From Candidatus Margulisiibacteriota bacterium (lineage in GTDB: Bacteria > Margulisbacteria > Marinamargulisbacteria > JBFWNS01): 64,000 bases of DNA. Positions 5,563-51,342 of the stretch are shown piece by piece. The notes under the pieces are model-generated. The model ran no database searches. It saw only the letters and a list, made by a program, of their open reading frames with translations, and was not told the DNA's origin. Numbering within the stretch: the first letter of the stretch is position 1; each line of letters starts with the position of its first letter. The DNA lies in NCBI GenBank assembly GCA_050250935.1, contig JBFWNS010000002.1:199793-263792 (forward strand), written 5' to 3'. A program made the translations under genes and the position numbers.

Positions 5563-7055
5563 ATTTACGTTGTACCACTGGCGATGCAGCCAGCAAAAAA
5601 ACCGATGTTTTAATTTTGCCATTTTTTGAGTCTGAAAAACCCAAAACCGGGGTCAAAAAAACCTTGGATCAAACACTCAAAAATCACCTGACCCAACTTA
5701 TCCAAACCAGGATTTTTGCAGGCAAACTGGGTCAAATTTGTGTGGTCCCAACTTTGGGACTGGCCCGGGCAAAGCAAGTGCTCTTGTTGGGCCTTGGCAA
5801 ACAAGGAGACCTCAGCCTCAACACCTTTCGCAATGCCGGTGGCGATTTGGCCCGAGCGTTGGAAAAACAAAAAGCCAAAACCGGGGTGCTAAGTCTGGAT
5901 GAAACCTCCCTTAAAAAATTCCCCCTTCCCGACATTGGTCAAGCCCTTGCAGAAGGATTGTTTTTGGGCCAATACCGCTTTAATACTTATTTAACCAACA
6001 GCAAAGACAGCCTATCCATCGACCTGCAATGGATGAGCCCTTCTAAAAAAACCACCACAGCCTTGTCCGAAAACTTGGATGTTGCCTTGGCCTTGGCCAG
6101 TGCCACCAACACGGCCAGAGATTTGGCCAACACCCCGCCCAACGACATGACACCCCGTATTTTTGTGGATTCTGTTCGCAATGTGTTTGCCGACTATCCC
6201 CACCTTAAACTCGAGGTTATCGACCGCAAAAAAGCCAAAGAATTGGGTATGGGTGCTTTCTTGGGCGTGGCCCAAGGCAGTGTGGAAGAGCCGTTTATGG
6301 CCATTTTGCGCTACATGCCCATTAAAAAACAGGCGCCAATTGCCCTCTTGGGCAAGGGCATTACCTTCGACACCGGTGGTATTTCCATTAAACCCGCCGC
6401 CAAAATGAGCGAAATGAAAGGCGACATGAGCGGGGCTGCTGCTGTGTTTGGCGCCATGAAGGCCATTGCCGAACTTCAACCTCAAGTCAACGTGATGGGG
6501 ATGATGGTTCTGGCCGAAAACATGCCTTCGGGTTCGGCCCAACGACCTGGGGATATCGTCAAAGCCATGAACGGCAAAACCATCGAAATTTTGAACACCG
6601 ACGCCGAAGGGCGATTGGTGCTGGCCGATGCCCTGTGTTACGCCGTCCAAGAAGGGGCCAAAACCCTGATCGACATCGCCACTTTAACCGGTGCGGCCTG
6701 TGTGGCCTTGGGCGAAATGGCCTCTGGGGTATTGGGCAACAACCAAGCCCTGATCAACCACCTAATTAAAATTGGAAACGCCAACGGCGACCGGCTGTGG
6801 CAACTACCTTTGTTCGACGAGTATTTGGATTATTTAAAATCTGAGGCCGCCGATTTGGCCAACTGCAGCGAAGGCCGCTATGGGGGTACTTGCTCGGCTG
6901 CCAAGTTTTTGGAGCAGTTTGTGGGCAAAACCCCTTGGGCCCATTTGGACATTGCCCCGATGATGCACTTTTCCAAAGCCACTGGCTATACCAGTAAAGG
7001 CATGTCTGGGGTCGGTGCCAGAACCTTGGCCACCTACGTTCTCGACCAGGCCTAG
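5559..7055 (+). CDS. pepA: Leucyl aminopeptidase (M17)
   Basis: NTDAEGRLVLADAL M17 signature and GKGITFDTGGISIKP motif; ATGA overlap with the upstream glycosyltransferase gene. Confidence 0.9.
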   Translation: MNLRCTTGDAASKKTDVLILPFFESEKPKTGVKKTLDQTLKNHLTQLIQTRIFAGKLGQICVVPTLGLARAKQVLLLGLGKQGDLSLNTFRNAGGDLARALEKQKAKTGVLSLDETSLKKFPLPDIGQALAEGLFLGQYRFNTYLTNSKDSLSIDLQWMSPSKKTTTALSENLDVALALASATNTARDLANTPPNDMTPRIFVDSVRNVFADYPHLKLEVIDRKKAKELGMGAFLGVAQGSVEEPFMAILRYMPIKKQAPIALLGKGITFDTGGISIKPAAKMSEMKGDMSGAAAVFGAMKAIAELQPQVNVMGMMVLAENMPSGSAQRPGDIVKAMNGKTIEILNTDAEGRLVLADALCYAVQEGAKTLIDIATLTGAACVALGEMASGVLGNNQALINHLIKIGNANGDRLWQLPLFDEYLDYLKSEAADLANCSEGRYGGTCSAAKFLEQFVGKTPWAHLDIAPMMHFSKATGYTSKGMSGVGARTLATYVLDQA

Positions 7056-7056
7056 G

Positions 7057-8157
7057 ATGTCGTGGGCGGAAGACCTTTCCCGGATTGATTCGGAGGGTTG
7101 CCGCCGTCGGCTGGGGTCGTTGAAGGGCGCTGTTGGGGCAGACTTTACCACCAACGATAGTTTGGGGCTGAGTACGCATCCGGCATTGCTCGAATCGGTG
7201 AAGGCCTCGTTTTCGAAAATGGGGGCAACAGGGTCTCGGTTGTTGGGTGGCGATAGCCCGACCCTTCGGGAACTCGAAGCAGCCCTGGCCCAGTGGTTGA
7301 GCATCGAATCGGCCCTGGTTTTTAATTCGGGCTATCATGCCAACACCGGCATTTTGCCGGCTTTGTATGGGCCAGGGGATGTCGTGTTTGCCGACCGCTT
7401 GTGTCATGCCAGTTTGTGGGATGGCATTGCCCTTTCCAAGGCCAGTTTACACCGGTTTGCCCACAACGATCTTACCCATTTGGAAACCTTGCTTAAAAAA
7501 CACCGTCCAAACGCCAAACGCGCCGTGATTGTGGCCGAAGCCTTGTTCAGCATGGACGGGGATTTTGCGCCTTTATCGGATTTGGTTCGGCTTAAACACC
7601 AGTTTGGGGCCGAACTCTATGTGGACGAAGCCCACAGCATTGGCGCCTATGGCCCCACCGGAAACGGCCTTGTAGGCCTTTTGGGATTGGAAAAAGACAT
7701 CGATTTTTGGGTGGGGACATTTGGAAAAGCCTTTGGTAGTTACGGGGCTTTTGTGGGCTGTGCGGACATCCTCAAACACCTGCTGATTAACAAAGCCCGG
7801 CCCTTTATTTTTTCGACAGCCCTACCCCAACCCGTCGTGGCTTGGAACCTGGCTGCAATCCACTTAATGCCCCATCTGCACAGCGAACGCCAGACCTTGC
7901 ACCGGCATAGTGCTCAGTTTCGGGATCATCTGCCGGGCACCCCAAGCACCTCGCACATTGTGCCGGTGATTACCGGGTCTGCAGCCAGCGCCCTGGCTTT
8001 GGCCGACCGTTTGCACACCGAGGGTTTTGCTGTAACGGCCATTCGTCACCCCACGGTTCCCAAGGGAACAGAACGGATTCGGCTATCGTTAACGGCGACC
8101 CACAGCCCAGACACCCTTCACCACCTGTTACACATCCTCTCGGAGACCCTAGCATGA
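7057..8157 (+). CDS. bioF: 8-amino-7-oxononanoate synthase (class II aminotransferase)
   Basis: Starts at ATG 7057, one nt after the pepA TAG. GYHANTGIL and SMDGD motifs and the PLP-lysine region TFGKAFG are typical BioF/KBL. Confidence 0.8.
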   Translation: MSWAEDLSRIDSEGCRRRLGSLKGAVGADFTTNDSLGLSTHPALLESVKASFSKMGATGSRLLGGDSPTLRELEAALAQWLSIESALVFNSGYHANTGILPALYGPGDVVFADRLCHASLWDGIALSKASLHRFAHNDLTHLETLLKKHRPNAKRAVIVAEALFSMDGDFAPLSDLVRLKHQFGAELYVDEAHSIGAYGPTGNGLVGLLGLEKDIDFWVGTFGKAFGSYGAFVGCADILKHLLINKARPFIFSTALPQPVVAWNLAAIHLMPHLHSERQTLHRHSAQFRDHLPGTPSTSHIVPVITGSAASALALADRLHTEGFAVTAIRHPTVPKGTERIRLSLTATHSPDTLHHLLHILSETLA

Positions 8158-12388: not shown

Positions 12389-14038
12389 TTAAGAGACGGG
12401 GCCAACCATCACGCTTTGCATACACGCATACAAGGTTCCGATAAAGTTCCGTGGACATGTGTCTGGATGCGGTGAACCGGGCACAGTCGTCACCGTGGAT
12501 CGTCTGAACAAAGCCTCAATCACACGATAAAGCGTTTTGGGCGCATGTCCCACGGCAGGACATGTGACATTTCCACCACCAAATGCCGTGGTTTTTGGCA
12601 AAGATTCATCTGCCCAACGTTCGGGTTTAAACGCTGTTGGATCGACAAACACGTCTGGGTCTTGCCCCATCCACAACGAATTTAATACCACAAAACTCCC
12701 TTTAGGGATGACTTTTCCAGAAGCCAAAGTGATAGACTCTTGCGGAATAATCGGGACCAACGGGGATGGCGGGTCCAGCCGCAGCACTTCTTGGATAACC
12801 TGTCTTAATAAGGGAGAATCTCCAGATTCCAACTCACGTCTAATTTGTGCTGTCCACTCAGAACTGCTCTGGTGAGCCAACCGGTATAGGGTCCACGACA
12901 AAGCGGTGGCCAGTGCATCTGAACCCACATGTAAAATGGCCGTGACTTGGCGGACATAAGCCTCACTTTTTAAAAGGGCATGAAGCTGATCGGGGTTATC
13001 TCTTAATGCGTGTAACTTTGCTTCGTATTTGGCTGTACCCAAAGCACCGTACTTGCCTTGGGCTTGTTCATCCATCATTTTACAAACCATCTGCAGGGCA
13101 AAAGGAAGCTTTGCATAACAAACTGGCTTTTCTGAATCTGAAAGAACAAGGTCAGACGTTAACTGAGCTTGCATCGTGTCAAACAAGAGGGTATCCAGAA
13201 GTTCTCCGGCCATTTCAAATTCACTATCAATCGCACTTGGACGCATCCACAAATCGGTTATTTTTTGATAAACACCCAAAAAGGCATCGGCCAGCACCAA
13301 TGCCAACCTCGGATCCGGATTTGGAATCCCAAAAGCCTGCCTTAACATCACCCCCATGCTAAACGTATGGGCCAATGCAGAAAGATCCATCGATTGCTTA
13401 GGATCCACATACAACAGGGCCGCTTCCATGCTGTTGACCACATCCGCTTCAGAAGGCACTTTGGTTGCCTGTTTGTAGAACAGGGTCATCATCTGATGAT
13501 CTTTTGGAAGCGCAGAAAACGGGGATTCTCCAAAAAACCGATTTCGAACAAAGGCCATGGGTTGCCGCAAATGGGCAACTGTTGAATACCCCGTCTCTGG
13601 GTTCAGTTTGACACGGTCTAGAAACTCTTTTTGTTCCGCATTGGTGGACAAGTACACCGAATGACCGTCGCCTAGTTTTGTAGGTAAAGACGTTGGCGTC
13701 CTTCCAGCTTGTTTGGCCGCTTGATCAGCCTGATATTGTTCTGCTCCACGTTGCTTCAAAAAGGCTCCAAGTTCTGTTCCATAGGTTCGCCCAGCTGCAT
13801 TGGTTGGGTCTTTTGCAAGACGATTAGACAGAAAACCGGGGGTTGGCGCATCTTTGGGATGGTGCACACGAATGTCTTGTAAGGATGTAGCCGGGTCTAT
13901 GTCGGACTTACCAGTTTTTCTATTCACCCCATAGTGAATGGTGGGGTCCCCAAACAAATAATCCCCCACCCTTCTCACAAAATCCCGCTTAGCCGGGGAC
14001 GGTAAATGATAGGTTCGAACACTGATAAATTTGTACAT
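12389..14038 (-). CDS. Cytochrome P450-like protein, extended (549 aa) with non-canonical heme loop
   Basis: ExxR motif (EVLRLDPP), PERW motif (FKPERW) and Cys-ligand loop FGGGNVTCPAVG (FxxGxxxCxA). Roughly 150 extra N-terminal residues. Confidence 0.7.
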   Translation of the reverse strand: MYKFISVRTYHLPSPAKRDFVRRVGDYLFGDPTIHYGVNRKTGKSDIDPATSLQDIRVHHPKDAPTPGFLSNRLAKDPTNAAGRTYGTELGAFLKQRGAEQYQADQAAKQAGRTPTSLPTKLGDGHSVYLSTNAEQKEFLDRVKLNPETGYSTVAHLRQPMAFVRNRFFGESPFSALPKDHQMMTLFYKQATKVPSEADVVNSMEAALLYVDPKQSMDLSALAHTFSMGVMLRQAFGIPNPDPRLALVLADAFLGVYQKITDLWMRPSAIDSEFEMAGELLDTLLFDTMQAQLTSDLVLSDSEKPVCYAKLPFALQMVCKMMDEQAQGKYGALGTAKYEAKLHALRDNPDQLHALLKSEAYVRQVTAILHVGSDALATALSWTLYRLAHQSSSEWTAQIRRELESGDSPLLRQVIQEVLRLDPPSPLVPIIPQESITLASGKVIPKGSFVVLNSLWMGQDPDVFVDPTAFKPERWADESLPKTTAFGGGNVTCPAVGHAPKTLYRVIEALFRRSTVTTVPGSPHPDTCPRNFIGTLYACMQSVMVGPVS

Positions 14039-14505: not shown

Positions 14506-15741
14506 ATGAACCACACCTCCTTTTTTAAGCTTCTCTCCTCTCGTTTTTTGTATTCCATGGCGGTTCAAATTCAGGCTCTGGTCTTGGGCTGGCAGATGTA
14601 TACCTTGACCCACAGCCCGGTCTATTTGGGGTTGATTGGATTGGCCGAGGCGGTTCCAGCCCTTAGCTTGGCCTTGTTTTCGGGATACCTGATCGACCGC
14701 TCTAATCCCATGAAAATGTTAACCTTTTCCATTGTGGTGGGTCTGGTTTCAGCTTCGTTTTTGTGGGCACCCCATTTGCCCGGTATCCATCTGGGGTTGA
14801 AACTGCAAATCATCTGCCTGTTTTTGTCTTCTTTTTTGACTGGCATTTCCAGATCGTTTTTACACCCCAGCGTCTTTGCCATCGTGCCCCGCATTGTCGA
14901 GCGCAGCTATTTGCCAAAATCCTCGGCGTGGATGACGATGGCCTATCAAACCGCCAGTGTGTCTGGCCCAGCCATTGGGGGGCTATTGTTTGGATTTTTT
15001 GGCATTTTTACAGCTGCCTCGGTGGTGGTGGGACTAACCACCTTGTCTTTGCTGGGATTAAGTTTGACCCATTTTGCTTGGACCCCTGCCCCGCAACAAC
15101 CGGTTCGGGGGCGGTTTAAAGTCGAGTTGATGTCTGGGCTTCGATTTGTGTTTAAACACCCGCTCTTATTGCCTGCCCTATCCTTGGACATGATTTCGGT
15201 GTTGTTTGGGGGCATTACGGCTTTGCTTCCTATTTATGCAGCCGAAATCTTGTTTGTGGGGCCCATTGGACTGGGCTGGCTTCGGGCAGCAACAGCCATT
15301 GGTGCCGGCGGCGTCAGTCTTGCGCTCACCCAAATTGAAATCAAAAAGAAAGCCGGTCGCTTGCTATTGGGCTCTGTAACAGGGTTTGGGGTTTGCATTT
15401 TGGTGTTTGCCATCAGCAAAAACTATGTCTTGTCTTTCGGAGCCTTGCTGCTGAGTGGCATGTTCGATTCCGTCAGTGCGGTGATCCGCTCGGCCTTGGT
15501 TCAATTGTCCTCGCCCGACGAGCTTCGGGGCCGCATTTCTGCAGTGAACATGGTTTTTATCAGCTCTTCGAACGAGCTTGGGGAATTTGAATCGGGCATG
15601 GCGGCTAAGTTGTTGGGCACTGTTCCTGCTGCCGTCTTTGGCGGCATTGTTTGCTTGCTAACGGTGGGTACCGTAACCCTGTTTTCAAAACCCCTGCGGG
15701 AATTGGATTTGTCTAGGCTTAGGCCGGAAGAGACGTTGTAA
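14506..15741 (+). CDS. MFS transporter
   Basis: 12-TM profile with MFS-like loop motifs. Confidence 0.85.
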   Translation: MNHTSFFKLLSSRFLYSMAVQIQALVLGWQMYTLTHSPVYLGLIGLAEAVPALSLALFSGYLIDRSNPMKMLTFSIVVGLVSASFLWAPHLPGIHLGLKLQIICLFLSSFLTGISRSFLHPSVFAIVPRIVERSYLPKSSAWMTMAYQTASVSGPAIGGLLFGFFGIFTAASVVVGLTTLSLLGLSLTHFAWTPAPQQPVRGRFKVELMSGLRFVFKHPLLLPALSLDMISVLFGGITALLPIYAAEILFVGPIGLGWLRAATAIGAGGVSLALTQIEIKKKAGRLLLGSVTGFGVCILVFAISKNYVLSFGALLLSGMFDSVSAVIRSALVQLSSPDELRGRISAVNMVFISSSNELGEFESGMAAKLLGTVPAAVFGGIVCLLTVGTVTLFSKPLRELDLSRLRPEETL

Positions 15742-16864
15742 AAAAAGTCTCTGCAGCGTTTCGATCGATGATCATCGGCACTGCATTTGGGTAGATCTTT
15801 AAAAACTTCTCTAACCCGCGATGCCGGCTGGCTTTATGGTCAGATTTAACTTCGATCGCGTACAATTTTTCATTGGTTTGAAACACAAAATCCACCTCAT
15901 CATTACCGTCTCGATAATAGGAAAGTTGGCCTTTTTGAAGCGATAAATGGGCACCAACAGCCGCCTCTAGAAGTCGCCCTTTCCAAATTGAGTCTTCTTT
16001 TTTGGAGCCATGAAGGGCCTGAGGCAAGGCGTTGTTTAAGGGAAGTAACTTTGGTGCGGACGATCGTCGTCGGAGTTCAGACCCGCCATATTTTTGAAGA
16101 GCTTTAACTAAAAATGCCCCTTCAAACAAGGTCAAATAATGCTGAATGGTGGTGATGTTACCCTTATCTTGTAATTGCCCCAACAACTTGGTCAGGGAAA
16201 TTTCCTGGGCCGGATAGGCCATTGCAAGTTCAAAACACTGTCGAAAAAGGGCTGGCTTGTGCACCGTTGCTACTTGCAAGATATCTTTGGACAAAACCGG
16301 TTCGATAATGCCGTATTTAACATAGTCTTCCCAACGCTCTTGATTCGAAACCAATTCTGCGGCGCCCGGATAGCCGCCATAGGTTAAATAGGTCTCCAAG
16401 TTCCAACCAAAAGCTTCTTTACAATGGGTATAGCTCCAATGTGGGGCAAAAATCAATTCAAATCGGCCCGCCAAGCTTTCCGAAAGTCCTTGCTGAATAC
16501 TTAAGCTCGCCGAACCCAAGAGCACCACTTTCATGGAACGAGAGGCCCGTTCTTGATCAAACATGACTTTAATCACCCGACTCCAATCCCGTACCTTTTG
16601 AATTTCATCAAAAACCAGCAACACATTGTTACCCATGCTTTTGGCCAATTTCCATTGAACTTCGATCCAGCTTTCGGTGGGTGCAGCCACTTCGTCTGCC
16701 GTCACCATCAAAGTAGGCCCTTTCCACCGAGAAACGATACTTTTTAGCGCTGTGGTTTTACCCACCTGCCTAGGCCCCAAGACAACCTGAATAAAATTCA
16801 AATCAGATTGAAGGCGTTGTTCTAAAAAATGTTCAAATTCCGGCTTCATTAAGTTCATATTCAA
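15719..16864 (-). CDS. AAA+ ATPase (COG1373 / DUF4143 family)
   Basis: Walker A GPRQVGKTT near the N-terminus, Walker B LLVFDEIQ, and a C-terminal DUF4143-like region. Confidence 0.8.
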   Translation of the reverse strand: MNMNLMKPEFEHFLEQRLQSDLNFIQVVLGPRQVGKTTALKSIVSRWKGPTLMVTADEVAAPTESWIEVQWKLAKSMGNNVLLVFDEIQKVRDWSRVIKVMFDQERASRSMKVVLLGSASLSIQQGLSESLAGRFELIFAPHWSYTHCKEAFGWNLETYLTYGGYPGAAELVSNQERWEDYVKYGIIEPVLSKDILQVATVHKPALFRQCFELAMAYPAQEISLTKLLGQLQDKGNITTIQHYLTLFEGAFLVKALQKYGGSELRRRSSAPKLLPLNNALPQALHGSKKEDSIWKGRLLEAAVGAHLSLQKGQLSYYRDGNDEVDFVFQTNEKLYAIEVKSDHKASRHRGLEKFLKIYPNAVPMIIDRNAAETFFTTSLPA

Positions 16865-18117: not shown

Positions 18118-19419
18118 CTACGCGTTGGGAAACCACAGCTTAAGTTGCGTTCCCGGCCGATGCTCTGGGTCGCTTTCTAGGGTGATTTTCCCCTTAAAGT
18201 CGTTGACCAACCCCTGAACAATGGCTAGACCAAACCGGTGTTGCTCGCCGTTGTCTTTGAGGGCGACTTCCTGGTTAAAAAAGGTCGCTTGCTGCTCTTT
18301 GGAAAGACCAGGGCCGGTATCTCGAACACAGACACAAACCCCTTCGATGCCATCCCGACTTTCGGTTTCAGTGGACAAATACAATTCGCCACCGTCTGGC
18401 ATCACCGCCAAAGCATTGCTGATGAGGTTGGTGAAAATTTGAAACATCCCGCGCTGTGTCCCCATCACCCCTGGGGTTTCGTGCAAATAGTCCACCATTT
18501 TGATGTTCTGCTGCACACATTTGGCCTTGCTTAATTTAATGATTTTTTCCAAGGTACTTTGAACCTGAAGTTTTTCCAGCACCGTGCCCCCACCCGCCGC
18601 ACTTAGCATGCCACTGAGCACCGATTGCATGTCTTTGACCGTTTGATCCACAACCCCAATGGCACTTTTTAAACGATCCGGCTGATCGATGACAAACTGC
18701 AGCCCATAGGTGGTCATGCCCAACAAATGCAGGGGATTTTTAAGCTCGTGGGCAATCTGCTCGGTCAAAAGGGCATAGGCCCGATACCGCTCGGCCTCGG
18801 CCAGCCGCTCGGATTGGGATTTTAGAACTCGGTTTGCGGATTCGAGTTGGGCATTGGAAAGGTTTAAATCTGAAACAGCTTGTTCCAAATCCAGCAAAGC
18901 AATTTTCGAGCTATTATAATAAAAATAGATCGCAAAAATAATCATCGAAAATGTCATCAACATAATGGTGATATACACAAATTGAAGCTGAGATTTCGGC
19001 AAAATAACGGTTGGAAATAACGCATAGTTGGTTATCTCGAGCAAAATCAGACCCCCTATCGACAAAGCAATACCAAATACAGCCCCCTGCCATTCTTTTT
19101 CGCCAAAAACCACAAAAGAAACAGCCGACAAGCCATAAAACACCCACTGGATACCGCTATCTCGACCCAAAGACGACGCATAGAACAAGACAGCTGCCCA
19201 AGTACAAATTACAAGCCCCAAACGTGATATAGTGGGGAACCGTTGATTTAAATAAAGGCAAAGGGATAAAACCAGAACAACAGGCCAACAAATAAAGCTT
19301 AGAAGACTTTGCCCAATAATTTGAAAAATAATGCCCCAAGGAACCGCAATGCCAATCAGCAAAAGGGCAACATTTCGGGTCAACGTTTTCCGATTCTGAT
19401 ACCGATCTAGCTGTTGCAT
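18118..19419 (-). CDS. Membrane sensor histidine kinase (paralog of 21438-22757)
   Basis: Multi-TM N-terminal half, H-box IAHELKNPLHLL and HATPase_c G-boxes (DTGPGL, GLGLAIV). Only a 10-bp gap after the upstream gene. Confidence 0.85.
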   Translation of the reverse strand: MQQLDRYQNRKTLTRNVALLLIGIAVPWGIIFQIIGQSLLSFICWPVVLVLSLCLYLNQRFPTISRLGLVICTWAAVLFYASSLGRDSGIQWVFYGLSAVSFVVFGEKEWQGAVFGIALSIGGLILLEITNYALFPTVILPKSQLQFVYITIMLMTFSMIIFAIYFYYNSSKIALLDLEQAVSDLNLSNAQLESANRVLKSQSERLAEAERYRAYALLTEQIAHELKNPLHLLGMTTYGLQFVIDQPDRLKSAIGVVDQTVKDMQSVLSGMLSAAGGGTVLEKLQVQSTLEKIIKLSKAKCVQQNIKMVDYLHETPGVMGTQRGMFQIFTNLISNALAVMPDGGELYLSTETESRDGIEGVCVCVRDTGPGLSKEQQATFFNQEVALKDNGEQHRFGLAIVQGLVNDFKGKITLESDPEHRPGTQLKLWFPNA

Positions 19420-19428
19420 TAAAGGGTC

Positions 19429-21336
19429 TTAATCGGCAATAACAACAGGGCTTCGAAGCCGATACCGACTACTTTCCTCAGTAAACAACACGTTCGAACC
19501 TTGCCAGCACTGCCATTGTTCAAATTTAGCTTGAAGGGCATCTATAGCTCTACGCTTCTCTGATTCAAGTTCATCAGGCCGAATCTCAAAGTCGTCATCC
19601 CAAAGATGTCCAACGTCCCCAAAAAGCTCCGTATAACTTCGATGAAATTCAGCCATATGTTTATCGTGGGAATCTGCTAAATAATGCACAGCCTCTAGAA
19701 AACGTCTACCATAGGAAGTCACACCTGACGAATTCATTCTGATTTTTAAAAGATTGGGCTCATCGCTATCCCATTCTTTAGCCCCCCCCAAATCATTTAC
19801 CAAACAAATGGCTGTATTGATATTTGTATCCATAATTCCATATAAATGGGACTGTCTGAGTTTATCAGGAATCTGAATATTTAATAAAAATTCACCCAAA
19901 ACAAAAACGGTTGGAACTGCCCCGCTGGTTCTGCGATGATTCAAATACTGCTCAACCGGCGGTGCTTTTTCACGAATTTGCATTTCAGCAACAGCCGATT
20001 GAAAATATTGATTTGCTTTATCATAAAAAGCATTTAATAAATCCGAATCTACTTTTGTTGACTGTTGGTGCTGTCGTAAACGGCACCCAAAATCATAGAT
20101 GGCTCGGCCTAAAACTTTTGCCTGTTGCAGTTCCGATGAGGTTAAAACAGTTGACCAGTCATATTGGCGCTCATCTGCGCTATGAGCATCCGATCGGTCT
20201 AGTTCTTGTTCAAAATCTTCAAAGGTGTACTTTTCGTTTTTCAATAAACTCATTAACAGTCGGTTAAATGCTTGTAACAAGGGCTTATTCTCAAGCTTTC
20301 CAAATGTTGCGTCTTTTCTGTCGATCAAATCATCAAACAAAAATAAAATTAATACCCACATGGTATTAATTTTGTGTTTTTCAATATCTTTGGTTTGTAA
20401 AAGGGCATTAACCGCAAGCTCAATGAACTTACTGTTCTCAAAAGATCGAATAACATGATCACGATCTTGTTCATCACAGGCTTTTAACACGTCCCGGTAC
20501 CACACAAACATGTCTTCAATCACTTGTTGGATCAAGCCCGATTCATGCCGAGTTGGCTTTCTCCCAACCTGTAATTCAACAACCAAGGGCCTTCTGTTAA
20601 TCTCAAAGGACACATGAAACTTCTGGGTCACGCCCTGCTCAACGGTGGTGCTTGAAGCAACACATTCAACCCTCTCAGATGTTGGCTCAGGTAAAGTTTG
20701 GGCAGCAGCAGCAGCAGCAGACGCTCTTGCTCCATTTAAATCGGGAAAATTCGGGGGTACAGGTAGTCTTTGATCACCAAAAAAGGATGGGGGTCTTTTA
20801 ACGGGCACAAAATCTGGCTCTGAACCAATCTGAAAAGAATCATTGGAAACGGGTTTGATGGGTGGGGTTTCCGAACTATTAGGTCGGAAATTTGGACTTC
20901 GGCCTGGGGGTTCTTCGGATCCTGATGTTGGGGTTATGCTTCTGGGAAGTACCGTAATCACCTGTGTTGCAACTATTTTTATACTGACTCTTACTTCTTC
21001 AATTTTAAGAGGCTGACCGTCTACTGGTTTTGCGCCAGCAATCATGGCTTTAATCATGGCGCCTTTTTCTGTAGGCCCACTCTCTTTAGCCAAATGCAGA
21101 CCAATATCGTGTATAAGATCAAAAATTTGTACAGCGTTTGCTTCTGAAACCCCATCCCGTGTACTCTGCAAATATGGCAAAATATCTCTAACCGAGACTA
21201 CCGGCGTCCGATCCCCAAAAATTTCTGTAAACCTTGCCAATAGCGGTACTTCTGGTGCAACAGGCCTAGGCGGCTCGATTTGCCAAGCCATAGGTACTGC
21301 AATTTGTTTATGATGAAGTGGACAATATTTTTTCAT
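19429..21336 (-). CDS. Two-domain protein: N-terminal unknown/Pro-rich region plus C-terminal class-I terpene-synthase-like domain
   Basis: The sites that support the call are: LILFLFDDLID (DDxxD at aa 335-339); RR at 468-469, 46 aa before an NSE-like NDLGGAKE (514-521); and an RY pair 11 aa from the C-terminus. GAGG RBS upstream. Confidence 0.5.
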   Translation of the reverse strand: MKKYCPLHHKQIAVPMAWQIEPPRPVAPEVPLLARFTEIFGDRTPVVSVRDILPYLQSTRDGVSEANAVQIFDLIHDIGLHLAKESGPTEKGAMIKAMIAGAKPVDGQPLKIEEVRVSIKIVATQVITVLPRSITPTSGSEEPPGRSPNFRPNSSETPPIKPVSNDSFQIGSEPDFVPVKRPPSFFGDQRLPVPPNFPDLNGARASAAAAAAQTLPEPTSERVECVASSTTVEQGVTQKFHVSFEINRRPLVVELQVGRKPTRHESGLIQQVIEDMFVWYRDVLKACDEQDRDHVIRSFENSKFIELAVNALLQTKDIEKHKINTMWVLILFLFDDLIDRKDATFGKLENKPLLQAFNRLLMSLLKNEKYTFEDFEQELDRSDAHSADERQYDWSTVLTSSELQQAKVLGRAIYDFGCRLRQHQQSTKVDSDLLNAFYDKANQYFQSAVAEMQIREKAPPVEQYLNHRRTSGAVPTVFVLGEFLLNIQIPDKLRQSHLYGIMDTNINTAICLVNDLGGAKEWDSDEPNLLKIRMNSSGVTSYGRRFLEAVHYLADSHDKHMAEFHRSYTELFGDVGHLWDDDFEIRPDELESEKRRAIDALQAKFEQWQCWQGSNVLFTEESSRYRLRSPVVIAD

Positions 21337-21400
21337 AGAAAATGGGGACCTCTGACAGAGGTAAAAGGGTTAGAAAAATGGGGTAGAAACGCTATGAAAT

Positions 21401-21441
21401 AATTCTAAACCCATTCCCCCAAAAGTAAAAGATTTTTTTAT
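21401..21441. repeat. 41-bp conserved element, copy A (upstream of the terpene-synthase-like gene)
   Basis: aattctaaacccattcccccaaaagtaaaagatttttttat is identical to 22837-22877. Partial similarity extends about 20 bp further. Confidence 0.6.
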
Positions 21442-22757
21442 GTCAACTTCTGGTTGATTTGAAAAGTGACTTGAAAAGTTGTTCCAAGTCCCTGCTCTGT
21501 AGTAATGTGGAGTTTTCCTCCCTGCGCCGCCACAACCTCCTTAACAAACGTCAGTCCAAACCCCGAATTCCCAACCTTGGTACTAAACCCTTCCTCAAAA
21601 ATTTGATCCATAATCTCTGGGGCAATCCCTCCGGCATTATCCCGAAGTCCAAACAAAACCCCACCTTCCGTTCTTTTTGCCGAAAATTCTAGCTTGGTAG
21701 CCCCCGCTTGAATGGCGTTGACCATAAGATTGATGATGACGTTTTGAATTGCCCCTTCATGGCCATAAATAAGGGGAAGGTTCGATTCAAAATCCAACGT
21801 GGCTTGAACATTTTTTAGACAAAGATCTCCCTTTGACATGGTTAGCAAGGCTCGAACCATGGATTCCAATTCAAAAGTACTCGTTGCAGAAATGCTGAGG
21901 GAATTTTGGTGCAGAAGGGTTTCGACCAAATTATAGAGATTGGCGATAGTCCCTCTTAAGATGTTGGCTATTTTTTCGATATCATCTGGGCTTTTGGCGT
22001 ATTGAGACATAAGGTCGGGGACATTGGTCATCAAGCTGAGTGGATTTTTGATTTCGTGGGCAATGTGCTGGGTCATGGTGGCGAATTGGGCTTTTTGGGT
22101 TAAGGACTTATTGGTTTCCCAAAGTGTGGCGTGGGCAGATTGAAGTTGGGTGAGGGTCGTTTCAACTTGCTGTAAAGCTATTTGGAGGTTTTCTTCGTGA
22201 TATTCATTGAGTGCAATATAATAACGGAGGGTTAAGAATACCATGCTAAAAGCAACTGCTAGGCTTAAAAAAGACAGTGAAAAAGAAGCTGTTGTTGAGA
22301 TCTGGACCGATGAAATTTTATGGGAATACAAAGGCCACAATTGTAATAAAACCATGGTTGAGAAAGGAATAGTAAAAGCTACAATTTGAAGTATTTTTTC
22401 TCTGGGGCTAAACAAAGCCAAAGAAACGGCTGCAATAACAACAGCAACAATTTGAATACCTGCCTTTGGACCTAAAATAAATGCAAAGGTAAGAATAGCC
22501 AGGCAAGTTGAAAAAACAATTGCGAGCTTTCCTAGCTTGATAAAGCCTTTGGAAATAAAAGTATAGGAACTTAGAAATAAAAGGACAAAAGGAATCACCA
22601 AAAGCGCTAATCTAGGGAACCCTAAAAACAAAAATAAGAGACTATAAGGAACCCCAGCGGCGGAACCCACTAAAATTAATGTATTGGCCAAATACAGGCG
22701 CCTTTTTTCGGGTTGCTGAATAAAACTAGAGCCCGTTTCTAGTATTTTTGTAAGCAA
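21438..22757 (-). CDS. Membrane sensor histidine kinase (paralog of 18118-19419)
   Basis: Same architecture as the downstream kinase: multi-TM N-terminus, H-box IAHEIKNPLSLM and HATPase_c motifs. Confidence 0.85.
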   Translation of the reverse strand: MLTKILETGSSFIQQPEKRRLYLANTLILVGSAAGVPYSLLFLFLGFPRLALLVIPFVLLFLSSYTFISKGFIKLGKLAIVFSTCLAILTFAFILGPKAGIQIVAVVIAAVSLALFSPREKILQIVAFTIPFSTMVLLQLWPLYSHKISSVQISTTASFSLSFLSLAVAFSMVFLTLRYYIALNEYHEENLQIALQQVETTLTQLQSAHATLWETNKSLTQKAQFATMTQHIAHEIKNPLSLMTNVPDLMSQYAKSPDDIEKIANILRGTIANLYNLVETLLHQNSLSISATSTFELESMVRALLTMSKGDLCLKNVQATLDFESNLPLIYGHEGAIQNVIINLMVNAIQAGATKLEFSAKRTEGGVLFGLRDNAGGIAPEIMDQIFEEGFSTKVGNSGFGLTFVKEVVAAQGGKLHITTEQGLGTTFQVTFQINQKLT

Positions 22758-22836
22758 TGATTTGGCCTTTTATTGTGGCATAGAGCTTTACAAATGGAAC
22801 TCTATTTACAAAAAATAAGGGGAAACTTATGTACAG

Positions 22837-22877
22837 CAATTCTAAACCCATTCCCCCAAAAGTAAAAGATTTTTTTA
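22837..22877. repeat. 41-bp conserved element, copy B (upstream of sensor kinase 21438-22757)
   Basis: Identical to 21401-21441. Lies 79-120 bp upstream of the minus-strand kinase start. Confidence 0.6.
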
Positions 22878-23018
22878 TACTCCTTTAGGGTTGACTTGAA
22901 AAGAAAATGGCTTCATGAACTATGCCAAGACACCATAACGACTTTTTAAAGAAATCCGTGAAAGACAGCCACTTTTTTTGACTTTTTCACGATTTTTATC
23001 TGAATTTCGTTATTCTGT

Positions 23019-24137
23019 TTACTTTAATAAGGCCAAAACCGCCGCTTCCAAGGTGGGGTATTTTACAAATTCTGGCCAGAGGTCTTCCATGCCCTGGGGT
23101 TTGGGGGCGGAAGGAAAAAAAGATTTAAATACCGAAGGGCGAATGGGCAGGTGTTTTTCTAGGGCTTCTTTGGCATAGTTGGCAAACAAGGCAAAGCGGT
23201 TTTGGAAGGGAAGATCGCCACTGGCGTTTTCAAGGTCATAACAGTGGACCAGATCGTGAATTTTTTGGTTGATGGTTTCGGGATGGGCCGATTTGTTTAG
23301 ATAGTCCCGAACCCCGCGTTCAAATCCGGTTTTGGCAACAGGGGTATCTTCGTAGGCGGTCAGCATCAGAATCATGGCTTTCGGGGCCAGTTTTTTGATT
23401 TCGGGGATTAAGTCGTGGCCTTTTTTACCTGGCAATTCCACATCCAAAACCACCACGGCAACGTCTTTGTTTTGGGCCAAAATTTCCAGGGCTTCGTCGG
23501 CCTCTTTGGCATCCAAAATGGTATAGATTTTTTCCAAAGACAACCGAAACGCTTCGGCGATAAAGGCTTGGTCGTCAATAACCAAGACCTTCTGTTTTTG
23601 GGGCCTAAAAAAAGCTTCGGGCAAACTTAAATGCACCCCAAATTCGACTTCGTTTCCTTTTAACTTCATCCATTCCGCTTCCAAATTCGCCTGCACCAAC
23701 AACCGGGTTTCTTCGAGGGGGCCATCGGGCTTAAACTGTTGGGCGGCATAGCGCTTTAACGATTCTGTGGCATAGTTGGCGAAGGTGGTTTTGCAAAATT
23801 CCAGCAAGGGTTTATCGAAGGCATCGAAGACAAAAACCCCGCCCAAACGCATCAGGCGGACGGTGGCGTTATGATGGGTAATGCCCACAATCATGACGGG
23901 GATGTGGGAATAGGTGATTTGGATGTCTTGAACGGCACTTTCGAGTTCGGACAAAGAGAATCCGCCACAATCAATGACAACCACAGAAAACGAGGTGTTT
24001 TCGAAGCTTAAATCAGAAATCAATTCCTCTTGGTTTGAAAACCATCGGGACGAGACTTGATCGGCAAAAAAAGCCTCGAAAAACGCAACCCGTGTCGGGT
24101 CTTCGGACAAAATATAAGCAATAAAATTAGAATCCAT
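23019..24137 (-). CDS. Response regulator with tandem receiver domains (first degenerate) and C-terminal domain of unknown function, no DNA-binding output
   Basis: Second REC is canonical: KVLVIDDQ...VVVLDVELPG...ILMLTA...K. The first is a pseudo-receiver. 14 bp downstream of the glyS stop. Confidence 0.7.
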   Translation of the reverse strand: MDSNFIAYILSEDPTRVAFFEAFFADQVSSRWFSNQEELISDLSFENTSFSVVVIDCGGFSLSELESAVQDIQITYSHIPVMIVGITHHNATVRLMRLGGVFVFDAFDKPLLEFCKTTFANYATESLKRYAAQQFKPDGPLEETRLLVQANLEAEWMKLKGNEVEFGVHLSLPEAFFRPQKQKVLVIDDQAFIAEAFRLSLEKIYTILDAKEADEALEILAQNKDVAVVVLDVELPGKKGHDLIPEIKKLAPKAMILMLTAYEDTPVAKTGFERGVRDYLNKSAHPETINQKIHDLVHCYDLENASGDLPFQNRFALFANYAKEALEKHLPIRPSVFKSFFPSAPKPQGMEDLWPEFVKYPTLEAAVLALLK

Positions 24138-24151
24138 CCCCGACTGCCCCC

Positions 24152-26179
24152 TTACACCACAATTTTTTCGAAATCTCCAATAGACTTAAACAACCCATTA
24201 ATTTGAGACAAAAACGCCAAGCGGTTGGCTCGAATTCCCTCGTCTGGGTCCATGACCATAACCTGATCAAAATAGGTGGTTAGGGTTGGGATGAGGGTTT
24301 GAACCATCGGCTTGTAGTGGTCGATGACGGTCTGCGGGGTAACCCCAGCTGGAAACAGGGCTTTGAAAGCATCCAAAGCCACCCCTTCTTGAGCGTCTTT
24401 AAACAAACGGGGCTCCACTGCCGATACCGCTTCCGATTTTACCAATCGGGCGACCCGAACCCCCAGATCCACCCAGGCTTTAAAATGGGGCTCTTGGCGG
24501 CGGGCTTTTAAGAAGGTCAAAGCAGCCAGTTGTTGGCTGGGTTTTCCAGCAAAATTAGCCATAACAGCATCGACCAAATCGTAGTCGAATCCGCGCAGCT
24601 CTTTAAAAAACAAACTGACCCGCTGTTTGAAAAAATCCAAACAGTCTTTTTTTCCTGTTTGGGTTTGGAGGCCCTCAAAGGCAGCATCCAGACCCTCGGT
24701 TAAAGAAAAGGAAGTCCAGTCGGGCAAGGTTAAATTCATTTCCAAAATCGCATTGGCCATCCGACGAATGCTCCAGGGATCTTGAGAGCCGGTTGGAATC
24801 AGTCCGTTTACAAAACAGGCTGCAATTGTGTCCAACCGATCGGCGATGCCAACCACAGACCCCGCAAGGGTTGTAGGCAAGCTATCCCCAGCAAATCGGG
24901 GCAGATAGTGCTCTTCGATGCCCAAGGAAACGGGCTCGGGCAGCCGGTGATACCGGGCATAAACCGCCCCCATTTTGCCTTGAAGCTCTGGCAATTCGTA
25001 GACCATTTGGGTGGTTAAATCAGACTTGGACAACCGGGCAATGATTTCGATATTGGGGTCTGTTTTTCCAATAAACGAAGCCAACTGGATCGACAGGCGC
25101 TGAATTCGCGCCACTTTGTCGGCCAAGGTTCCCAACCCTTTTTGGAAGACCACGGTTTTTAATTTTTCGGCGTGTTGGTCCAGGGTTTGTTTGATGTCTT
25201 CTTCGTAAAAAAACCGTACATCGTCCAAACGGGCCACCAAAACTTGGCGGTTGCCTTTTCGAATATTGGCCTCGCTTTTGGGGGTGACATTTTCGGCCAC
25301 CACGGCAAAGGAATGGGTTAATTGACCGTTGTTGAGAATGGGAAAGTATTTTTGATGCTTTTTCATACAGGCAATTAAAGCCTGTTGGGGCAGGCGTAAA
25401 AAGTCGTCGGGAAACGATTCGACCAGCACCGTTGGCCATTCGCACAAATAGGTGACTTCTTCGAGCAAGCCTTCGTCGGATTGGGCGCCATGGGTTTCCA
25501 GTGCTTTGCGAATCGCCTGCTTGCGTTTGGCGGGGTCTACTACCACATGGGCATTTTCCAGAATCGTTTCGAATTGGGTGGCTTCTGGGACTGGAATGGG
25601 CTGATGATCGGCTAAAAACCGGTGCCCCCAAGTCTCGGGTTTGCTTTGAATGCCATACAAATTCAGAGGAATAGCGGTGTTGCCATGCAAACAAAGCACC
25701 CAATGCACGGGCCGAATAAAGGCCTTGCTTTCGTGCCCCCATTTCATGGCAATGGGCAAGGGCAAATTGGCCACAACCGATTCCAACAGTTCGGGCAAGA
25801 CTTGAACAGCAGGCGCAACCGATTCGTCGCGATAGGCCACCACATAGGATTTCCCTTGCTCTTCTTCAACAACGAAAGCATCGGGATCGATTCCGGCTTT
25901 TTTGGCAAAGCCAATGGCCGGGGCAAGCCATTCGCCGTTGGTGCCTTTGGCTGCGGCCAATTGTGGGCCACGCAATCGGGTTTTTCCGCCGGTTTGCTCG
26001 GTGGCCAAGTTGGCCATCAGAACAAAACGTCTGTAGGTTCCCAAGGTTCGGACCTCGGTTGCAGCCAATCGGTGGCTGGCAAAGGCCGTCTCGGCTGCCG
26101 TTTTTAGTTGGTTTAAAAAGTCTGTCATAAAGCGGGCGGGAACCTCTTCCACACCCAGCTCGAATACAAATGGCCTCAT
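24152..26179 (-). CDS. glyS: Glycine--tRNA ligase beta subunit
   Basis: [19 protein letters not shown]-terminus and overall GlyS-beta length. The start was chosen at M13 of the track ORF, giving an ATGA overlap with the upstream ATPase stop. Confidence 0.9.
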   Translation of the reverse strand: MRPFVFELGVEEVPARFMTDFLNQLKTAAETAFASHRLAATEVRTLGTYRRFVLMANLATEQTGGKTRLRGPQLAAAKGTNGEWLAPAIGFAKKAGIDPDAFVVEEEQGKSYVVAYRDESVAPAVQVLPELLESVVANLPLPIAMKWGHESKAFIRPVHWVLCLHGNTAIPLNLYGIQSKPETWGHRFLADHQPIPVPEATQFETILENAHVVVDPAKRKQAIRKALETHGAQSDEGLLEEVTYLCEWPTVLVESFPDDFLRLPQQALIACMKKHQKYFPILNNGQLTHSFAVVAENVTPKSEANIRKGNRQVLVARLDDVRFFYEEDIKQTLDQHAEKLKTVVFQKGLGTLADKVARIQRLSIQLASFIGKTDPNIEIIARLSKSDLTTQMVYELPELQGKMGAVYARYHRLPEPVSLGIEEHYLPRFAGDSLPTTLAGSVVGIADRLDTIAACFVNGLIPTGSQDPWSIRRMANAILEMNLTLPDWTSFSLTEGLDAAFEGLQTQTGKKDCLDFFKQRVSLFFKELRGFDYDLVDAVMANFAGKPSQQLAALTFLKARRQEPHFKAWVDLGVRVARLVKSEAVSAVEPRLFKDAQEGVALDAFKALFPAGVTPQTVIDHYKPMVQTLIPTLTTYFDQVMVMDPDEGIRANRLAFLSQINGLFKSIGDFEKIVV

Positions 26180-27297
26180 GGTTTGGATCCTTCTTGCGCT
26201 TTGGCTTTCAAACACACCACCCCACCCTCTGTGCGTTTGAACAACACGAGATTTTCGAGTTCAAATTCCCCAATCAAAACGGGATTTTGGACATCCAAGA
26301 TCACCTGGGTCTGCTCGCTGGCAGCCAAAAACAGCCGATGCAACTGAGGCAAAAGACTGGCGTGAAGGCCAGCATCGGGAAACTTAATGCCCATGACGGT
26401 CGGTTTTTGGGGATGCAAACACAACACCACCCAGCACAAAAATCGGACCCAAGCATCGGACCATTCGTAGATGGGCAACTTCACCGAAACCTCTTGGACA
26501 GAGGCCAAAACCATGCACTCTCGACTTAGGCCTTTTTGATTGACGGTTAAGGACAGAATCGCAGGAAAAGCGGTTTTGAGTTCCGCTTCGATGGCCTGAA
26601 ACACGGTTGGGTTTTTGTGTTGTAATTCGTAAAGCAGGCTCGGCAAATTCGAGGCATCTTCGGCCAAAAAAGTGTCTTTTCCGGCGTCTCCCACATCCAT
26701 AAACCGTTTGGCAAAGAGGGTTTCTGCCTTGTACAAGCGCCATCCCGAAATAAAGTGCTTAACACTGGCAATCACACCCAAGCTGGGGTCTTTGATCTGG
26801 GCCAGCCCCAGGCTGTTGGGCTCTCGGGTTCGAAACGTGTGTTTAATTCCCCAATGACTGACCGTGCCTTGGGTATTTTTTCGCTCGGGATCGTCGGCAA
26901 TGCCCTCTTGGTTTTTCACTTGCATGAAGTCGAAACTGTGGTTTGGCGCCGTGCCTTTGATGCGTTCGGACACCACGGCCAACCGTTGCAAAGGACCTTT
27001 AAGCTCGCCTTGGTAAAACAAGTACGATTCGAGTTTGGCATCGGCCTCGATTTTAAGGCTCCATAACAGGGACGATTGGGCATTGAAAAACACCTTGGTC
27101 CCCACATGGGTTGCCCATAATTCGGGGGTCATTTGGCCTTCGTTTAGGCTGTCTCTGAGGGCGGACAAAAATCCAAACACCGACGACTTGCCCACCCCAT
27201 TTTCGCCCAAAAAAACCGAAAGTCGGTTCAAAGGAACGGTGATGTCGTCGAACAGGCGATAGCCCTGCAACCGAATGGATTTGATTATGGATTTCAC
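26176..27297 (-). CDS. SMC/ABC-like P-loop ATPase (AAA_21/RecF-like fold) inserted between glyQ and glyS
   Basis: [14 protein letters not shown]...GENGVGKSS Walker A at the N-terminus and a C-terminal [15 protein letters not shown]-loop-like region. ATGA overlaps at both ends. Confidence 0.65.
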
Positions 27298-28154
27298 TCG
27301 GGCTCCTTGATGTACAACTCGGCACAGCCTCGGGCCAGTTTTCGAATGCGCAGAATGGTAGCCGTTCTTTCGGAAACTGAAATGGCGCCTCGGGCATCCA
27401 ATAAATTAAAGGTATGCGAGCATTTTAAGCACCAATCATAGGCCGGAATGGCCAATCCAGCTGCCAAGACCCGCTGGGTTTCAGCCTCGTAAAGGGCAAA
27501 CAATTGAAAAAGCATCTCGGTGGATGCCTCTGTAAAATTATAATGACAATTTTCGATTTCAGACTGCTTGTAAATGTCCCCATAGGTGACGATCTTGTCT
27601 TTGTGGGTTTGCCACACCAAATCGTAGACCGTTGGTTTTTGTTGAATAAACATGGCCAAGCGTTCTAGCCCATAGGTAATTTCAACCGAAATGGGGTTCA
27701 CATCCACCCCGCCGCATTGTTGGAAATAGGTAAATTGGGTCACTTCCATGCCATTTAGCCAGACTTCCCAGCCCACACCCCAAGCACCAAGGGTTGGCGA
27801 TTCCCAGTTGTCTTCGACAAACCGAATGTCGTGTTCTTCGGGAATAATCCCCAACCCGCGCAAACTGTTTAAATAGAGTTCTTGGACGTTCAGCGGCGAA
27901 GGCTTCAAAATCACTTGAAATTGAAAATAGTGTTGAAGGCGATTGGGGTTTTCGGCATATCGACCATCGGTGGGACGGCGGCAGGGTTCGACATAGGCCA
28001 CGTTCCAATCGCTGGGACCCAAGACCCTTAAAAAAGTGTGGGGGCTCATCGTGCCAGCCCCTTTTTCAGTGTCATAGGGGTTTAAAATCAGACACCCTTG
28101 TTCGTCCCAATATCGCTGTAAATTAAAAATGATTTCTTGAAAAGTAAGTGCCAC
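27294..28154 (-). CDS. glyQ: Glycine--tRNA ligase alpha subunit
   Basis: [21 protein letters not shown]...[15 protein letters not shown] is canonical GlyQ. Confidence 0.95.
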
Positions 28155-50834: not shown

Positions 50835-51300
50835 AAACCCTGTGTTTGGCCTGAAGGCGAAGGCTTAAAATACGAACCATGCCCCGAAGCAATTTTCTGG
50901 CCAGTGCCGGATCCCGTTCTTCGAGTCCAGACAAATCGGCTTGAAAAAAGCCCCAAACCACCGTGTCTTCCAAGGCCGTGGCTTGGGCCAAGCGTGGCAA
51001 GGGTTCGATTAAGGAGATTTCGCCAAAAACGGCACCGGGTTGTAATTCAACACTGCCCGACAAGGTGACGCCTTGGATGCGAACCCGCCCAGACAGCACA
51101 ATATAGAATCCCGTTCCCGGTTCTTTTTCATGAAAAATCGTCTCGAAAGCGTGGTAACGTCGTTCGTGCAAATAATCCAACAAGGCCGCCAATTCAAATC
51201 GAGAAAATTCTGCCAAAAGCGGGGCCTGAGCCAAAATAGCCAGTTTGTCCCCTTCGGTTAACTGTCGAACCACATTTCCCCACATCCAAGACGTCGCCAT
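50821..51300 (-). CDS. Cyclic-nucleotide-binding (CAP-family) domain protein
   Basis: FGEISLIE...RLA..T.A cNMP-binding signature; 14-nt overlap with the downstream transporter start. Confidence 0.75.
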   Translation of the reverse strand: MATSWMWGNVVRQLTEGDKLAILAQAPLLAEFSRFELAALLDYLHERRYHAFETIFHEKEPGTGFYIVLSGRVRIQGVTLSGSVELQPGAVFGEISLIEPLPRLAQATALEDTVVWGFFQADLSGLEERDPALARKLLRGMVRILSLRLQAKHRVFGHE

Positions 51301-51342
51301 GTTGATTATCCTTACTCAAAAATCTGTGAAGTAGCGTTTATT

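Follow-up and report, generated by a model that had tools for sequence, protein, structure and literature searches.

A 64,000-nucleotide stretch of contig JBFWNS010000002.1 from a Candidatus Margulisiibacteriota bacterium (the window, in what follows) carries four co-oriented genes, in which a divergent class I terpene synthase (TS) is followed directly by a membrane-embedded sensor histidine kinase (HK2) and preceded by a second sensor kinase (HK1) and a response regulator (RR). Two of these genes make up the core that is conserved in relatives: the divergent class I terpene synthase and, directly downstream of it, a sensor with a MASE7-type transmembrane (TM) domain of six helices. We propose that the locus is a signal-synthase/receptor cassette, in which the MASE7 sensors would perceive the terpene product of TS. 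This means that the enzyme would make the ligand of its own neighbours; judging from protein sequences and gene arrangement, we give this reading a probability of about 0.45. The genes are the following:

23019-24137, minus strand: RR, response regulator, 372 aa
21438-22757, minus strand: HK1, sensor histidine kinase, 439 aa, TTG start
19429-21336, minus strand: TS, terpene synthase, 635 aa, with the class I core at about aa 240-635 (nucleotides 19429-20619)
18118-19419, minus strand: HK2, MASE7 sensor histidine kinase, 433 aa
24152-26215: glyS, the next gene upstream of RR, at a gap of 14 bp

The first-pass annotation of the window had placed these four minus-strand open reading frames (ORFs) at exactly these coordinates and had called them a tight unit. 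The latter description fits TS and HK2 only, which are 9 bp apart; 101 bp separate HK1 from TS, and 261 bp separate RR from HK1. The second kinase does follow TS immediately, at 9 bp rather than the 10 bp given at first.

The terpene synthase and its downstream sensor

Gene neighbourhoods were collected from GTDB genomes, JGI metagenomes and exact-protein look-ups, and comprise 14 loci, mostly from metagenomes; L002 and L003 are metagenome-assembled genomes (MAGs) of Ca. Marinamargulisbacteria and L004 is a groundwater MAG, all three from GTDB. Conservation of the arrangement in relatives had been set beforehand as a check on it. A sensor gene lies directly downstream, on the same strand and at a gap of -29 to +65 bp, in 14/14 distinct clade TS genes with readable context, and the paired TS sequences are 17-62% identical and stand in differing genomic contexts. 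What is conserved is thus the two-gene core of TS and sensor; the four-gene set as a whole is not. In addition, we built a hidden Markov model (HMM) from the TM domains of six kinases and ran it on 598 ORFs of at least 80 aa in 304 kb of DNA (the window and 23 loci); its matches were confined to genes flanking clade TS genes. A downstream sensor is missing only beside P0029, an outgroup TS of ordinary type (314 aa) whose genomic context differs.

The output attached to the sensor TM domain is exchanged between lineages. It is HisKA/HATPase in the window, L002, L003, L004 and L016, and a SpoIIE-type PP2C phosphatase in L005, L007, L009, L015 and L021; the swap occurs even within a tight clade, since the kinase-type L004 and the phosphatase-type L015 are 56% identical in the TM domain and 50% identical in TS. 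The identity matrices of TS and of the TM domains are correlated (Mantel r=0.76, p=1e-4), which, as far as such sequence matrices go, shows co-inheritance of TS and sensor and not by itself co-adaptation.

The pair also multiplies. The sensor-TS-sensor form is found in the window, L003 and L009, and in the Ca. Marinamargulisbacteria MAG L003 the order HK1-TS-HK2 recurs with positional orthology: the upstream kinase there is the best TM-domain match of HK1 (35% identity), and the downstream kinase is the best match of HK2 (34% identity, E=7.6e-65). The flanking of an enzyme gene by two kinases, pointed out for the window from its sequence, is therefore not peculiar to it. L009 carries a third, probably disrupted copy in addition to its sensor-TS-sensor set, and L021 has a tandem TS-sensor-TS-sensor, in which the cassette is duplicated as a unit.

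Some details of these loci deserve mention in their own right. The upstream sensor kinase of L003 is without an ATPase domain, and a 103-aa HATPase-like fragment lies 4 kb off, past a PD-(D/E)XK transposase gene (L003, 8461-9518 and 12266-14043), which suggests rearrangement or decay of this second sensor. At 2400-9300 of L021 (also in L022), the two PP2C sensor genes share 300 nt at 100% identity, a sequence pattern that suggests recent gene conversion. Beside the outgroup P0029, which is found on three metagenome contigs (L011-L013), a gene for a cytoplasmic PAS_3-SpoIIE phosphatase ends 11 bp upstream, and MerR, thioredoxin and MDMPI genes are neighbours; this may be an independent TS-PP2C association.

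The C-terminal domain of TS had been read from the sequence as terpene-synthase-like, and Pfam bears this out well above threshold (PF19086, Terpene_syn_C_2, aa 327-561, E=4.7e-21, 75.9 bits with a cut-off of 23.7). By sequence TS is remote from solved proteins, the best match in the Protein Data Bank (PDB) having E=0.1. The fold was a second check set beforehand: the core, aa 240-635, was modelled from a 13-sequence family alignment with a mean predicted local distance difference test (pLDDT) score of 89.2 and a predicted template modelling (pTM) score of 0.90, and the top 50 Foldseek matches of the predicted structure are all class I terpene cyclases, in line with an all-alpha class I terpenoid synthase; neither of the two checks spoke against the first-pass reading. 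The catalytic residues of this fold are conserved. The Asp-rich DDxxD motif is present (D335-D-L-I-D339), as are the pyrophosphate-sensor Arg R468 (R468-x-x-S-G472) and the C-terminal pair R624-Y625. D335, D339 and R624 are conserved at 90% or more in the family alignments, which preserves both metal ligands of the Asp-rich motif, its first and last Asp; Y464, R468, G472, N514, D515 and Y625 show no variation at all, nor does E521 in the core-clade alignment A3, and A1 conserves E521 at 90% or more. These residues suggest that TS would be an active, if unusual, cyclase.

The clade is very small. When 1.84 billion representative proteins were searched exhaustively with HMMER, 28 matched at E<=1e-3 and 13 at E<=1e-10; two of the 28, P0013 and P0025, were rejected as spurious, being repeat proteins that match the low-complexity N-terminus. 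It was this search that found the relatives: word-indexed protein searches with the single protein, A1 and A3 returned 1, 3 and 4 proteins only. We found no plasmid relatives of TS or of the MASE7 domain. The clade core is about 400 aa long, with a 'PTGF' beta-hairpin before the helical core and the signature VND..(G/A)KEW...EPN.

All 14 clade TS carry a short N-terminal peptide tag of the form hydrophobic-x-(K/N)-K-[IVLM]-[IVF]-[AS] (for example MIFCLKKIVAVS and MCIRHNKIIASQ; ..HHKQIAVP in the window TS), joined to the core by a very variable linker of about 20 to 230 aa. In the window TS, this linker holds an insert of about 220 aa, partly P/S-rich and without homologues; the insertions that P0007 and P0009 carry at this position are unrelated to it. 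Considering the conserved tag and the variable linker, the apparent N-terminal domain of the window TS is an insertion between tag and core, and the tag, from its sequence pattern, may be a docking or tether peptide.

Sensor kinases, response regulator and a repeated upstream element

Both kinases combine several TM helices with HisKA and HATPase_c domains and are MASE7-like, and their initial description as multi-TM sensor kinases stands. In HK2, Pfam MASE7 (PF20967) scores 31.5 bits over the full length and 34.6 bits with the TM part only, above the cut-off of 26.2, and HATPase_c has E=1.8e-15; H224 in the H-box QIAHELKNPL, NLISNAL, DTGPGL and RFGLAI show that its N, G1 and G2 boxes are intact. 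HK1 has about six TM helices that resemble MASE7 below threshold (18-21 bits), with HATPase_c at 7.9e-18 and HisKA at 2.4e-4 in Pfam, and its motifs are likewise intact (H-box H234 in HIAHEIKNPL; NLMVNAI, DNAGGI and GFGLTF for the N, G1 and G2 boxes). The two had been called near-identical paralogues. They are paralogues of the same architecture, but old ones, with 23% identity over 420 aa in BLASTP (E=1e-27).

Like HK1, most sensors of the relatives fall below the MASE7 threshold (14-21 bits), and two have no MASE7 match; all sensors below the threshold are homologous to HK2 by BLAST or by the purpose-built HMM. When sensor TM domains alone were searched, only Pfam MASE7 matched and nothing meaningful was found in NCBIfam. 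In an alignment of 19 sensors, about six helices can be made out, and the motif A..Y...LG...GI is conserved.

RR consists of an N-terminal domain of about 130 aa, a linker, one canonical receiver and a C-terminal tail of about 75 aa. The receiver, aa 184-293, is clear (Pfam Response_reg, E=1.6e-20; PDB receiver matches such as HupR1, E=1.6e-12), and its residues are in place (D188/D189, D232, T261, K283). The protein had been taken for a tandem-receiver regulator, of which this one receiver stands; a second is not demonstrable, as the PDB matches span only aa ~174-318 and the N-terminal 177 aa give no PDB sequence match and only a sub-threshold FleQ-like one (E=0.03). A single-sequence AlphaFold2 model of RR was unusable (pLDDT 43). 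The claim that RR is without a DNA-binding output agrees with our searches, which detected no such domain. In L002, a two-domain homologue of RR with two Response_reg stretches stands beside the cassette, and a receiver protein likewise adjoins the cassette in L004.

The strongest direct repeat of the region lies upstream of HK1 and TS, with 86% identity over 66 nt and a 41-nt exact core, where 0 are expected by chance:

22838-22903, minus strand: copy 1, exact core 22838-22878, 80 nt upstream of the HK1 start
21401-21466, minus strand: copy 2, exact core 21401-21441, 64 nt upstream of the TS start, overlapping the last codons and stop of HK1

Both copies contain a promoter-like TTTACT-16 nt-TAGAAT, of which the hexamer match alone is not significant. 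The design recurs in L021: each of the two TS genes there is preceded by a copy of a 60-nt element (95% identity), and 24 nt from the 3' end of the sensor gene are present three times. The repeats in the window and in L021 suggest that each unit brings along an upstream region of its own and that these regions evolve in concert. Since the same promoter-like element stands before HK1 and before TS-HK2, these are probably co-expressed and, on this sequence pattern, may be under common regulation. No terminator-like sites were found on the minus strand in the RR-HK1 and HK1-TS spacers, and no sigma-54 -24/-12 pattern was seen by eye in the repeat. Across loci, the regions upstream of TS and sensor genes gave no convincing shared motif; a 10-mer, TACTTTTGGG, is common to the upstream regions of the window and L003 and could be due to chance. 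GC content at third codon positions (GC3) is 0.34 in TS and 0.40 in HK1, compared with 0.52 in HK2, 0.54 in RR and 0.52-0.60 in the surrounding housekeeping genes, and the two low-GC3 genes are exactly those preceded by the 41-nt identical element. This low GC3 may reflect replacement by transfer or different expression constraints.

Two mini-ORFs start from the ATG in the 41-nt repeat copies and are alike over their first 14 residues (MGLEL...):

22726-22851, minus strand: MGLELLYISFPLFF..., 41 aa
21373-21417, minus strand: MGLELFHSVSTPFF, 14 aa

They were considered as ComX-like peptides and rejected, as they have no counterpart upstream in other loci and no well-spaced Shine-Dalgarno sequence.

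A candidate terpene signal and competing explanations

Farnesyl diphosphate is present in every bacterium as the precursor of undecaprenyl phosphate. In the process that we propose, cytoplasmic TS would use its two metal sites, DDxxD and N-D...E, to ionise a prenyl diphosphate and would release a hydrophobic terpenoid. This terpenoid would partition into the membrane and bind, or otherwise act on, the MASE7 helices of the neighbouring sensors, thus switching their cytoplasmic output; in the window, HK1 and HK2 would presumably converge on the adjacent receiver protein, and in other lineages the switched output would be the PP2C (SpoIIE-type) phosphatase. The terpene may either be shared between cells, in a manner like quorum sensing, or serve as a cell-autonomous feedback signal. 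The catalysis by TS, the identity of the ligand, the phosphotransfer partners and the downstream response are the parts of this scheme that we infer from sequence.

The signal/receptor reading rests on three features, namely a constant pair of enzyme and TM sensor, an interchangeable output, and duplication of the pair as a unit. If the output is swapped and the pairing of TS with the TM domain is kept, a TM domain that recognises something specific to TS is the easier explanation. The first-pass annotation had suggested a circuit that controls, or responds to, an isoprenoid product; the comparative data point there as well, and as to its direction, sensing is what we favour over control.

Several points weigh against a terpene signal perceived by the sensors. 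The adjacency of the two genes is equally expected if the sensors merely regulate the synthase, and MASE7 domains presumably also occur away from terpene synthases. In TS itself, the NSE-type motif N514-D515-L-G-G-A-K520-E521 has Gly where the canonical (N/D)Dxx(S/T)xxxE has Ser/Thr, and its length falls short of that motif by one residue (the relatives P0003 and P0004 have a canonical NSE, NDGVSxGKE), and the middle Asp of DDxxD is variable, with DNxxD or DSxxD in many relatives. Domain searches found neither a DNA-binding nor an enzymatic output domain in RR, and the 64-kb window holds no isoprenoid genes, prenyl-diphosphate synthase included.

We consider four other explanations for the pairing. 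First, the MASE7 sensors may detect another membrane or environmental cue and control the expression or activity of TS, the terpene being the output, as a volatile, protectant, antibiotic or membrane modifier. Tight adjacency and co-inheritance would be expected of a dedicated regulator no less than of a receptor, the N-terminal linkers of the window TS, L015 and L016, which are P/S/T-rich, could be targets of regulation, and there is a precedent in RpfC, a sensor that directly inhibits the neighbouring synthase (PMC13220807). However, no HK-type locus has a DNA-binding response regulator to drive TS transcription, and the HK and PP2C outputs are freely exchanged while the TS-TM pairing is kept, both of which speak mildly against it; moreover, the cassette duplicates as TS and sensor pairs, as cognate signal/receptor pairs do. 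We regard this explanation as less likely than a receptor, but as its main competitor.

Second, the TS-fold protein may release no signal and instead assist the sensor from the cytoplasm, tethered to it by the N-terminal tag; it would bind a prenyl diphosphate and in this way report the status of isoprenoid or cell-wall precursors. The conserved tag with its variable linker in the 14 clade TS does look like a docking tag, the spacing of 9-26 bp between TS and sensor suggests co-translation in fixed stoichiometry, and the metal motifs are partly degenerate, given DNxxD in many relatives and the shortened NSE of the window TS. Against this, all catalytic residues, the pyrophosphate-sensor Arg and the Arg-Tyr pair among them, are invariant or at least 90% conserved across sequences that are only 20-30% identical, and the metal ligands of the Asp-rich motif are kept; such a set goes beyond what a pure binding protein would need, which makes this explanation improbable.

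Third, the enzyme may prenylate a small peptide or metabolite, as in ComQXPA, with the membrane kinase sensing the product. The gaps between TS and sensor (9-26 bp) are too small for a comX-like gene, the MGLEL mini-ORFs (14 and 41 aa) have neither a sensibly spaced ribosome-binding site nor a counterpart in other loci, and the motif set (one Asp-rich motif, an NSE-type motif and RY) is that of cyclases, as are all top structural matches; thus, prenyl transfer is hard to sustain. Finally, chance juxtaposition of an ordinary secondary-metabolite TS with unrelated two-component genes could be argued from the abundance of such genes, from the position of RR, which follows glyS at 14 bp and may be part of a different unit, and from the four-gene set not being conserved as a whole, but an adjacent sensor in 14/14 loci and no TM-HMM match elsewhere in 304 kb effectively refute it, and chance adjacency of TS and sensor is excluded for practical purposes.

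Surroundings, known systems and significance

The cassette lies in housekeeping surroundings, with glyQ, glyS, hisG and hisZ upstream and genes for a HEAT-like protein, an AAA_14/DUF4143 ATPase, an MFS transporter, a cytochrome P450 and a TonB-dependent receptor downstream. Features referred to below are these:

12389-14038, minus strand: cytochrome P450, 549 aa, about 4 kb beyond HK2 (Pfam E=1.8e-20)
15719-16864, minus strand: AAA_14/DUF4143 ATPase of the window
6939-8144 and 5162-6334 of L003: AAA_14/DUF4143 ATPases
8618-9751 of L005: AAA_14/DUF4143 ATPase
26176-27297, minus strand: AAA_21/AAA_15 (AbiEii-like) ATPase
27294-28154: glyQ
49749-52197, minus strand: trio with an AI-2E family transporter, about 30 kb from the cassette
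59753-60132: tmRNA gene
60121-61695, minus strand: large serine recombinase

The P450 has weak NCBIfam similarity to pentalenene oxygenase and could be a terpene-tailoring enzyme. As a tailoring enzyme of this cassette it was rejected, since opposite-strand genes intervene and no P450 is among the annotated cassette neighbours in related loci. An AAA_14/DUF4143 ATPase gene lies within a few genes of the cassette in 3/14 loci, in L005 directly after the sensor; its recurrence may mean no more than that these genomes hold several copies of the gene. The AbiEii-like ATPase gene stands between glyQ and glyS and overlaps both, which is an unusual interruption of the glyQS pair. The trio at 49749-52197 is co-oriented and consists of the AI-2E family transporter, a small cyclic-nucleotide-binding protein and a class I SAM (S-adenosylmethionine) methyltransferase; no established link between it and the cassette was found. 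The tmRNA gene, with the tag GKVHTFPGAAVYGHASAQAA, is abutted with slight overlap by the serine recombinase gene, past which GC falls to 0.40-0.45; the region 59753-64000 looks like an island or prophage integrated at ssrA.

Synthases encoded beside multi-TM sensor kinases have precedents. In the Lqs system (LqsA, LqsS, LqsT and LqsR), the synthase of a hydrophobic autoinducer is encoded beside multi-TM sensor kinases (PMC5289986), and CqsS and RpfC/RpfF are further cases of such adjacency (PMC13220807). The likeness of our cassette to Cqs and Lqs is architectural only: a cytoplasmic synthase, here of a presumed hydrophobic product, is encoded beside a multi-TM kinase without a large periplasmic domain, the adjacency is conserved across taxa (14/14 loci), and two homologous sensor kinases converge on one response regulator, as in Lqs, if our proposal for the window holds. 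LqsR, too, is not known to have a classical DNA-binding output. However, CqsA and LqsA are pyridoxal-phosphate-dependent enzymes, whereas the window synthase has a class I terpene synthase fold, and its sensor TM domain is matched by MASE7 in Pfam and by none of the NCBIfam families, with no homology to CqsS or LqsS encountered; RR has an extra N-terminal domain before the receiver that sets it apart from LqsR, and half of the relatives have a PP2C phosphatase output instead of a kinase. With its terpene synthase fold and TM domains that match only MASE7, the cassette is thus analogous to Cqs/Lqs and not a member.

The Xanthomonas diffusible signal factor (DSF) system, RpfF/RpfC/RpfG, likewise has a synthase gene that adjoins a multi-TM kinase for a lipid-like signal. 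RpfF belongs to the crotonase family, and RpfC, a hybrid kinase, contains REC and HPt domains; we found no homology to either, and no HD-GYP regulator is present at the cassette. As RpfC contacts the synthase RpfF as well as inhibiting it (PMC13220807), a coupling of sensor and synthase is also conceivable for the window, via the conserved N-terminal tag of TS.

Among established cell-cell signals of bacteria, ComQXPA is to our knowledge the only one in which isoprenoid chemistry is needed. In Bacillus, its co-oriented genes encode an enzyme that uses an isoprenoid diphosphate, a multi-TM kinase and a regulator (PMC4008528), the same three kinds of component, co-oriented, as in our cassette. 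However, ComQ is a prenyltransferase acting on the ComX peptide, whereas the window enzyme has the motifs and fold of a cyclase; a comX-like ORF is absent (the TS-HK2 gap is 9 bp and there is no conserved small ORF), and RR is without a helix-turn-helix domain.

Known cyclases sit in biosynthetic clusters, and the synthases of 2-methylisoborneol (MIB) and geosmin stand next to cyclic-nucleotide-binding regulators. Compared with canonical class I cyclases (the N-domain of geosmin synthase and the T-muurolol, selinadiene and pentalenene synthases), TS is 16-24% identical in structural alignments. The clade core is about 400 aa long against 300-340 aa in the canonical enzymes, and the TS model adds the N-terminal 'PTGF' beta-hairpin, a terminal beta-strand and two long extra C-terminal helices; its own signature, its N-terminal tag and the obligate pairing with a membrane sensor further distinguish the clade.

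The arrangement was not recognised as a described system when the window was first read, and we too found no published terpene synthase-sensor cassette and no MASE7 in such a context; terpenes and isoprenoids go unmentioned in a 2026 review of quorum-sensing systems (PMC13220807). The TS-sensor pairing is real, conserved and apparently undescribed and, by analogy, may be a variation on the theme of synthase/receptor signalling.

Bacterial terpenes are abundant, and their physiological roles and receptors are largely unknown; we know of no bacterial terpene receptor defined so far. A constant synthase neighbour with interchangeable outputs gives the orphan domain MASE7 a concrete candidate ligand. 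More tentatively than for the window locus alone, and with some doubt, we suggest that MASE7 may be a dedicated terpene receptor, and that the cassette may be the first bacterial communication system with a terpene autoinducer made by a cognate class I terpene synthase, in which lineage-specific pairs would co-diversify and the outputs would be two-component or partner-switching (PP2C), in Ca. Marinamargulisbacteria and other uncultured lineages. If true, this would make terpenes a chemically new kind of bacterial signal, used in uncultured phyla of which little is known. Being compact (two genes) and naturally diversified, the TS-sensor pairs would also be attractive as orthogonal signal/receptor modules for engineering.

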